Shown here: piece by piece, positions 26,495-27,092 of the stretch | Position numbering within the stretch: the first letter of the stretch is position 1 | Layout of the letters: each line of letters starts with the position of its first letter | Assembly (NCBI RefSeq): GCF_003334355.1 | Contig: NZ_QOWP01000003.1 | Direction: 5' to 3' (one strand) | From: Escherichia coli | GTDB taxonomy: Bacteria; Pseudomonadota; Gammaproteobacteria; Enterobacterales; Enterobacteriaceae | DNA length: 64,000 bases | The notes under the pieces: generated by a model | Told to the model about the DNA's origin: nothing | Databases searched by the model: none | The model's input: the letters and a program-made list of their open reading frames with translations, nothing else | Translations under genes and position numbers: made by a program

Positions 26495-26638
26495 ATCAAC
26501 ACCAACCGGAACCTCCACCACGTGCTCGAATGAGGTGTGTTGACGTCGGGGGAAACCCTCCTGTGTACCAGCGGGATAGAGAGAAAGACAAAGACCGGAA
26601 AACAAACTAAAGCGCCCTTGTGGCGCTTTAGTTTTGTT
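26495..26638 (+). ncRNA. ryjA: Probable small RNA RyjA, convergent with and overlapping the soxR 3' end (5' boundary approximate)
   Basis: Non-coding interval ending in a strong intrinsic terminator that overlaps the soxR stop; position matches K-12 ryjA; 5' end not determinable from sequence. Confidence 0.35.
26604..26634. terminator. Bidirectional intrinsic terminator (13-bp stem AAACTAAAGCGCC/GGCGCTTTAGTTT) shared by soxR and the convergent RNA
   Basis: Perfect 13-bp inverted repeat with 5-nt loop; U-rich flank on both strands. Confidence 0.75.
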
Positions 26639-27092
26639 CATCTTCCAGCAAGCGTGCGCCGGTACCTTCTTCTCCTAAGCGGTCGCCCGGGTTACGCAAC
26701 GGGCAATCACTGCGCGAAAGGCAGCCACAACCAATACATCCGTCCAGTTCGTCACGCAGCGCCACTAAGGTATGAATGCGCCGATCCAACTCTTCTCGCC
26801 ATTGGGACGAAAGCTGTTTCCACTCTTTCGCACTTAACGTATGCCCTTCGGGCAACACGCCAAACGCTTCACCAATGGTCGCCAGCGGAATGCCAATACG
26901 CTGAGCAATTTTGATAATTGCAACATATCGCAACACATCACGTTTATATCGCCGCTGATTGCCGCTGTTACGGATACTGGTAATCAACCCTTTACTTTCA
27001 TAGAAATGCAGCGCCGATACCGCCACACCGCTGCGTTTCGCCACTTCGCCGGGGGTTAGCAGCGCTTTAATGCGGGGTAATTTCTTTTCCAT
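26628..27092 (-). CDS. soxR: Redox-sensitive MerR-family transcriptional activator SoxR (2Fe-2S), 154 aa
   Basis: HTH MerR N-terminus; C-terminal [12 protein letters not shown] cluster motif. Confidence 0.95.

Follow-up and report, generated by a model that had tools for sequence, protein, structure and literature searches.

The locus described here lies within a 64,000-nt stretch of Escherichia coli DNA (the window, in which all positions are counted from the first letter) and consists of two convergent genes that meet in a single hairpin. On the minus strand is soxR, whose coding sequence (26628–27092) was taken from the open reading frame list and the K-12 annotation, and on the plus strand, running towards it, is the small RNA gene sraL, also named ryjA (26495–26635, 141 nt). 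The stop codon and the last 8 nt of soxR overlap sraL, and the hairpin in which the two genes meet occupies 26604–26634.

Assignment of the small RNA gene was based on an Rfam match, on equivalence to the annotated K-12 gene b4459 and on identity to the sequence of strain MG1655. The Rfam family sraL (RF01408, 'sraL Hfq binding RNA') matches 26495–26635 on the plus strand along the whole of its model (positions 1–142 of 142), with 153.3 bits against a gathering score of 39 (E = 1.1e-34). A 321-bp segment around this match (26380–26700) is 100% identical to K-12 MG1655, in whose record (NC_000913.3) the ncRNA ryjA (b4459) is annotated at 4277926–4278066, corresponding to 26495–26635 (+) of the window. 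In the same record soxR is found at 4277469–4277933, convergent with ryjA and overlapping it by 8 nt, with ghxP on the opposite side. A sequence-only reading of this DNA had proposed an RNA at 26495–26640 whose position matches that of K-12 ryjA and which would be transcribed towards soxR; the data above bear this out in identity, direction and extent, and its start coordinate was exact. The 321-bp region was found in 5421 of 5426 complete E. coli genomes, and the PGAP annotation of most E. coli genomes lists soxR alone under this stretch. Three of the 5434 matching places of the sraL–soxR junction were located on plasmid-class records, and some genomes carry two copies.

The candidate transcript of 141 nt fits the family size of ~140 nt, and a plus-strand Rho-independent terminator was called at its end. 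The locus is like SraL/RyjA (RF01408; K-12 b4459) in sequence, length, ends, soxR-convergent position and terminator, and also in its sigma-S-type promoter and its complementarity to the tig leader, there being no sequence difference; what does differ is that the regulation of tig and rho has been demonstrated in Salmonella and not in E. coli. The best explanation of the locus, to which we assign a probability of roughly 93%, is that it is sraL (ryjA) of E. coli, encoding a 141-nt trans-acting small RNA with the structure, promoter and terminator described below and the functions given in the literature. SraL/RyjA was found in E. coli in 2001 in two screens as a 140-nt RNA (PMC3753932), and nothing that the earlier reading raised about the feature is new.

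The hairpin is a perfect 13-bp inverted repeat with arms AAACTAAAGCGCC (26604–26616) and GGCGCTTTAGTTT (26622–26634), which are 100% complementary and are separated by a loop of 5 nt (CTTGT). The soxR stop codon TAA (TTA on the plus strand, 26628–26630) sits within the 3' arm. The whole 64-kb window has two perfect hairpins in which the stem is 13 bp or longer and the loop 3–10 nt, and 20 first-order Markov simulations of it produced none, so the hairpin at 26604–26634 is no chance feature. The sequence after the stem is U-rich on both strands (TTTTGTTCATCTT on the plus and GTTTGTTTTCCGGTCTTTGTC on the minus strand). The repeat, its overlap with the stop codon and the U-rich flanks had all been described from the letters alone and were recovered here as described.

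A terminator scan called this hairpin on the plus strand, with 13 pairs, 6 GC, and the tail TGTTCATCTT. On the minus strand the same scan made no call, because the tail GTTTTCCG has 4 T rather than the 5 required in the 8-nt scoring window, though the minus-strand stretch UUUAGUUUGUUUUCC, while below the T-tract criterion of the scan, is U-rich overall. Predicted folding energies are similar for the two strands, at -23.8 kcal/mol for the plus and -25.9 kcal/mol for the minus strand. Taken together these features suggest that the hairpin is a bidirectional terminator serving both genes, ending sraL on the plus strand as an intrinsic terminator and likely ending soxR on the other. It is like the bidirectional intrinsic terminators of other convergent genes, which have a GC-rich core stem between an A-tract and a T-tract, an arrangement by which both convergent transcripts terminate in a hairpin and a run of U. 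It differs from them in that one of the convergent partners is a small RNA and in that, in Escherichia, the stop codon of the partner is inside the stem. The overlap of the SraL and soxR terminators has been stated in print (PMC2190706), and a literature search for 'bidirectional terminator' together with soxR returned one unrelated use of the phrase only. The second perfect 13-bp hairpin of the window, at 43209–43238 (AAAAGAACCCAAT-AAGC-ATTGGGTTCTTTT), is flanked by an A-tract and, on the opposite side, by a T-tract and, from its sequence, looks like another bidirectional intrinsic terminator.

Immediately upstream of the RNA the window reads cATACAAT-TAA, comprising a -10 hexamer TACAAT (26483–26488) and then TAA (26489–26491), which on the plus strand have the form of a sigma-S-type core promoter with +1 at the A of 26495. 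Among 96 distinct upstream sequences, anchored at the 5' end and compared ungapped, TA(C/G)A(C/A)T is found at -12 to -7 and TAA at -6 to -4, with C frequent at -13 (family consensus CTACACTTAA). A weak -35-like element, CTGGCG (26460–26465, plus strand), lies 17 bp upstream of the -10, and CTGGC is weakly conserved at -35 to -31. No plus-strand promoter upstream of 26495 was called in a sigma-70 consensus scan, but this is judged uninformative for a promoter of the sigma-S type with a degenerate -35. Degenerate -35 elements are usual for sigma-S promoters. The earlier reading had held that the 5' end could not be determined, a view that does not stand: the end is annotated at 26495, the sigma-S-type -10 is at a fixed distance from it in the 96 upstream sequences, and the agreement of annotation and comparative data supports this position. 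The same RpoS-type features were described for the sraL promoter by Silva et al. 2013 (PMC3753932), and judged from these motifs the E. coli copy would have a promoter of the sigma-S type and would depend on RpoS.

Homologs of the RNA were collected by one exact-pattern scan, with one genome per species and a pattern covering nt 12–22 and 54–64. This gave 101 places, 99 of them clear homologs; the other two, in an archaeal MAG (L028) and in Actinopolyspora (L064), were chance matches to the pattern and were left out. The homologs are spread over the Enterobacteriaceae, and the genera represented include Escherichia, Salmonella, Citrobacter, Enterobacter, Klebsiella, Raoultella, Kosakonia, Buttiauxella and Cedecea, together with Atlantibacter, Shimwellia, Trabulsiella, Pluralibacter, Leclercia, Lelliottia, Phytobacter and others. 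An alignment of the 91 distinct RNAs was analysed with RNAalifold and by pair counts. The consensus fold has 34 pairs in six helices, with standard pairs in 98.6% of cells and compensatory double changes in 9 of the 34 pairs. In 500 column shuffles the observed values were never reached, whether for the fraction of paired cells, the count of pairs with double changes or the covariation score, and when the 3' partners were slid by 1–3 columns pairing was 36–57% as against 98.6%. The folding energy of the whole RNA is only marginally better than that of shuffles (z = -1.87).

The 5' stem-loop (26495–26544, plus strand), which was recognised by covariation, is made up of helix 1 (26495–26501/26538–26544) around helix 2 (26512–26515/26532–26535); within helix 1, four of the seven pairs have changed on both sides in a compensatory way, in 17, 25, 6 and 18 sequences. 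Two small central hairpins (26548–26576, plus strand) come after it. The first, GGG/CCC (26548–26550/26556–26558), is invariant but belonged to the homolog search pattern, and the second, UCCUG/CGGGA (26559–26563/26572–26576), has three pairs with compensatory changes. The blocks CCGGAACCUCC (nt 12–22) and GGGGGAAACCC (nt 54–64) constituted the search pattern and are invariant by construction. The purine-rich stretch AUAGAGAGAAAGACAAAGACCGGAAAA (26576–26602, plus strand) is unpaired in the consensus fold and is predicted to be single-stranded. Outside the search pattern, GAUA, AAAGAC and AGACCGG are invariant in the 91 distinct homologs, and the invariant CCGGAACCUCC and AAAGACAAAGACCGG blocks are candidates for the segments with which RyjA pairs with its partners. 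As proposed here, the sraL RNA would start at 26495 and run through the covarying 5' stem-loop, the two central hairpins and the purine-rich single strand to the 13-bp terminator.

These upstream helices bear on the suggestion that there is no separate RNA gene at this locus, the hairpin being the soxR terminator only and the 110 nt upstream of it unconstrained intergenic DNA. Such a suggestion would agree with the PGAP annotation of just soxR in most E. coli genomes and with the empty sigma-70 scan. It is difficult to reconcile with compensatory changes in helices upstream of the terminator, with the full-length Rfam match and the K-12 ncRNA annotation, or with a -10 conserved at a fixed distance from the 5' end, and the transcript itself has been detected by Northern blot and RNA-seq in E. 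coli and Salmonella (PMC3753932, PMC12266141, PMC4014581). We consider it refuted by the covariation and the published transcript detection, and give it next to no credence.

The alignment also speaks to whether the transcript might be a small mRNA, given that an in-frame ORF (26530–26610) lies inside the RNA and could encode a 26-residue peptide, MRCVDVGGNPPVYQRDREKDKDRKTN, from an ATG at 26530 to a stop at 26608–26610. There is no Shine-Dalgarno sequence upstream of this ATG, conservation tracks base pairing rather than codons, the ATG is replaced by CTG or another codon in most genera and indels of 1–2 nt within the ORF break the frame. On the last two grounds the 26-codon ORF was rejected as a peptide gene, and a coding role for the transcript is very improbable. 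The reading retained is that of sraL as a structured, non-coding RNA.

Within that RNA the terminator stem is almost invariant across genera and its loop varies freely (91 distinct homologs). Over 26605–26633 of the window (alignment columns 126–157), 7 of 12 pairs never vary in the 91 distinct homologs, and there are only two compensatory changes, each in a single sequence, in Pseudocitrobacter and Shimwellia. Conservation of the stem would seem to be stronger than terminator function alone would need.

Of the 99 loci, 98 have a SoxR homolog convergent with sraL. The soxR stop codon, located by walking from the start of the tblastn alignment, is inside the 3' arm of the hairpin in 11 loci, shares just the final two U of the tail in 33 loci, and is past the 3' end of sraL by 1–20 nt in 25 loci, by 21–60 nt in 18 and by more than 60 nt in 11. 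Eight of the 11 'inside' loci have the stop at the exact E. coli position, including those of Escherichia coli, E. albertii, E. whittamii and the Citrobacter amalonaticus group, and in the remaining three it is deeper. On these alignments the overlap of the soxR coding sequence appears as a lineage-specific trait of Escherichia and a few Citrobacter, and the use of one hairpin to end both genes would be widespread. The overlap accompanies a SoxR of 154 residues as against 152.

In Escherichia and the Citrobacter amalonaticus group (L003, L014, L023, L037, L049, L051, L056 and L098) the 154-residue SoxR ends in ...EDEQN. Its last codons and stop (26628–26636) are encoded by the 3' arm and U-tract of the sraL terminator, and the U run is interrupted (UUUUGUUC). 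Proteins of most other genera align only as far as residue 151–152 of E. coli SoxR, and the U run there is uninterrupted, with 5–7 U.

On the other side of sraL, 78 loci have sufficient upstream sequence, and in 72 of these the neighbour is a divergent GhxP gene, at two typical distances, ~430 and ~1100 nt. A few of the loci with this arrangement carry unexpected labels. The contigs L049 (a MAG labelled Bacillota bacterium) and L068 (labelled Chryseobacterium sp. 18061) have an enterobacterial sraL–soxR–ghxP order, the SoxR and GhxP of the former being 100% identical to those of E. coli, and L008 and L016 (MAGs labelled Proteobacteria bacterium) are enterobacterial sraL–soxR–ghxP loci under vague labels. 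The mislabelled sraL contigs are likely the result of contamination or mis-binning of public assemblies.

Between ghxP and sraL (26144–26350) there are PurR-operator-like boxes, namely GCGAAACGTTA at 26144, GCAAACGTTT at 26199, GCAAACGATT at 26242 and GCAAACGTTA at 26341. All three matches to GCAAACGWTW in the window fall within this 150-bp ghxP–sraL stretch, and amid the boxes is a minus-strand sigma-70-like promoter, TTGAAA-18-GATAAT (26278–26249). By their motifs, the boxes and the promoter would fit regulation of the guanine/hypoxanthine transporter gene by the purine repressor. Elsewhere in the window, the Rfam selenocysteine insertion element SECIS_2 has a full-length match at 5943–5997 on the plus strand (87.1 bits), which we presume to belong to fdhF, given that its distance from soxR fits that gene in K-12. 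There are also five matches to naRNA4 (CssrE), all on the minus strand (8466–8536, 8579–8649, 19184–19255, 55224–55294 and 59452–59522), which we take to be REP-element-derived repeat sequence.

With regard to expression, SraL is seen on entering stationary phase (PMC3753932). In a Salmonella rpoS mutant its level is ~500-fold lower, a lacZ fusion to the Salmonella sraL promoter is RpoS-dependent and RpoS ChIP enriches this promoter >100-fold (PMC3753932); by RNA-seq in Salmonella there were 23180 reads in the wild type versus 38 in the rpoS mutant (PMC4014581). For E. coli K-12, RyjA has been listed as one of the RpoS-regulated sRNAs that are induced in stationary phase (PMC12266141). Hfq stabilises SraL ~3-fold in Salmonella, decay is driven by PAP I, PNPase and the degradosome, and 3' A-tails have been seen in E. 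coli (PMC2190706).

The targets of the RNA had been called indeterminable in the sequence-only reading, yet two have come from experiments in Salmonella. The first is tig, whose mRNA is repressed in Salmonella by SraL pairing just upstream of the Shine-Dalgarno sequence, a pairing proven with compensatory chromosomal mutations and gel shifts; in the published interaction the 5' part of SraL contributes two segments, of 7 and 3 bp, which pair a few nt upstream of the Shine-Dalgarno sequence (PMC3753932). The second, according to reviews of Silva 2019, is rho, where SraL pairs with the leader, blocks the autogenous premature termination by Rho and raises rho expression. A Salmonella RNA-seq study reported tig transcripts without significant change (PMC4014581).

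Pairing with the K-12 leaders was evaluated using windowed local duplexes, full-length RNAduplex against the tig and rho leaders having given meaningless extended duplexes full of very large loops. Of the local duplexes between SraL nt 1–108 and the K-12 tig leader, the best joins nt 25–34 (CACGUGCUCG, 26519–26528 on the plus strand) to tig -29 to -19 (CGAGCAC-U-GUG) in 7+3 bp shortly before the Shine-Dalgarno sequence, which could itself add ACCUC:GAGGU pairing, and this segment is probably the published tig-pairing site. Since the 7+3-bp complementarity is intact in K-12, we infer that tig pairing would hold for this E. coli copy too. At -19.5 kcal/mol the SraL–tig duplex equals the mean of dinucleotide-shuffled leaders, with 19 of 40 shuffles as good, and for rho the best duplex within the leader (-18.0 kcal/mol) was equalled by 35 of 40 shuffles, so that no candidate stands out. 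As these energies are no better than those of shuffles, the case for tig and rho pairing in E. coli is one of analogy with Salmonella. The most plausible candidate contact with rho is that the conserved purine-rich stretch (nt 77–96) may pair with the pyrimidine-rich rho leader at -148 to -127. A literature search for RyjA together with RIL-seq found nothing.

Variation along the RNA is greatest where the tig-pairing segment lies, and Klebsiella, Kosakonia and Buttiauxella lack this segment or have a different one; tig therefore cannot be the constraint that conserves the whole family.

SraL has features in common with other stationary-phase small RNAs. Like SdsR (RyeB), it is sigma-S-dependent, expressed in stationary phase, Hfq-associated, trans-acting and enterobacteria-wide (PMC3753932, PMC4014581), and both overlap a gene on the opposite strand, which for SdsR is SraC. 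The two differ in sequence, locus and targets (ompD for SdsR), and deletion of SdsR has a fitness cost in stationary phase, whereas deletion of sraL had none in stationary-phase competition in Salmonella (PMC4014581). The reported action on rho is similar to that of DsrA, ArcZ and RprA on the rpoS leader, in that a small RNA pairs within a long 5' UTR, ahead of the ribosome-binding site, and keeps Rho from terminating transcription prematurely. The target and small RNA sequences are different, and the target of SraL is rho itself, giving feedback on the termination factor.

Given the overlap with soxR, a relation in cis also has to be weighed. The earlier reading had described the locus as antisense to soxR, which overstates the cis relation: the two genes share no more than 8 nt of coding sequence and the terminator hairpin, and the published functions are trans-acting. 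In its stronger form the proposal is that SraL acts on soxR as an antisense RNA in cis, in addition to or in place of its action in trans, through the ~30–40 nt of perfectly complementary terminator that both transcripts contain; a duplex or transcriptional interference would then couple the sigma-S response to the 3'-end formation or stability of soxR mRNA, for example via RNase III. The 8-nt overlap with the coding sequence and the common hairpin are what such a partnership would look like, as are the convergence of 98 of the 99 loci, with the soxR stop inside the terminator or no further than 20 nt from it in 69, and the near invariance of the terminator stem across genera. In addition, a longer SraL species accumulates in a Salmonella RNase III mutant, and the authors suggest cleavage within the terminator, which overlaps that of soxR (PMC2190706).

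However, the overlap is limited to self-complementary hairpins, which would fold on themselves and not be free to pair, and tight convergent pairs with a common terminator are frequent and need have no regulatory meaning. The overlap with the coding sequence is lineage-specific, with 8 loci at the E. coli position and 3 deeper against 29 with gaps of 21–510 nt, and the literature examined contained no experiment in which SraL affected soxR. We regard cis-antisense action as unlikely. It is likewise doubtful, and if anything slightly more so, that the linkage of sraL and soxR in 98 of 99 loci and the almost invariant stem reflect a real cis interaction, whether with the complementary 3' hairpins as an RNase III substrate or with convergent transcription from a strong sigma-S promoter disturbing the formation of the soxR 3' end.

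The preferred reading remains that of a trans-acting SraL, which as proposed would be made in stationary phase under RpoS, be stabilised by Hfq, and repress tig and raise rho through pairing with their leaders. The gene was already described in 2001, carries a K-12 annotation, is represented by an Rfam family and has two targets characterised in Salmonella; the finding carries little weight as a discovery. The value of the check is mainly that the earlier reader was shown to have recognised a known small RNA locus and its terminator from raw sequence. If the cis interaction were nevertheless true, entry into stationary phase would tune SoxR levels and with them the superoxide response, and the C-terminal tail of Escherichia SoxR, being encoded in the terminator, would also be constrained.
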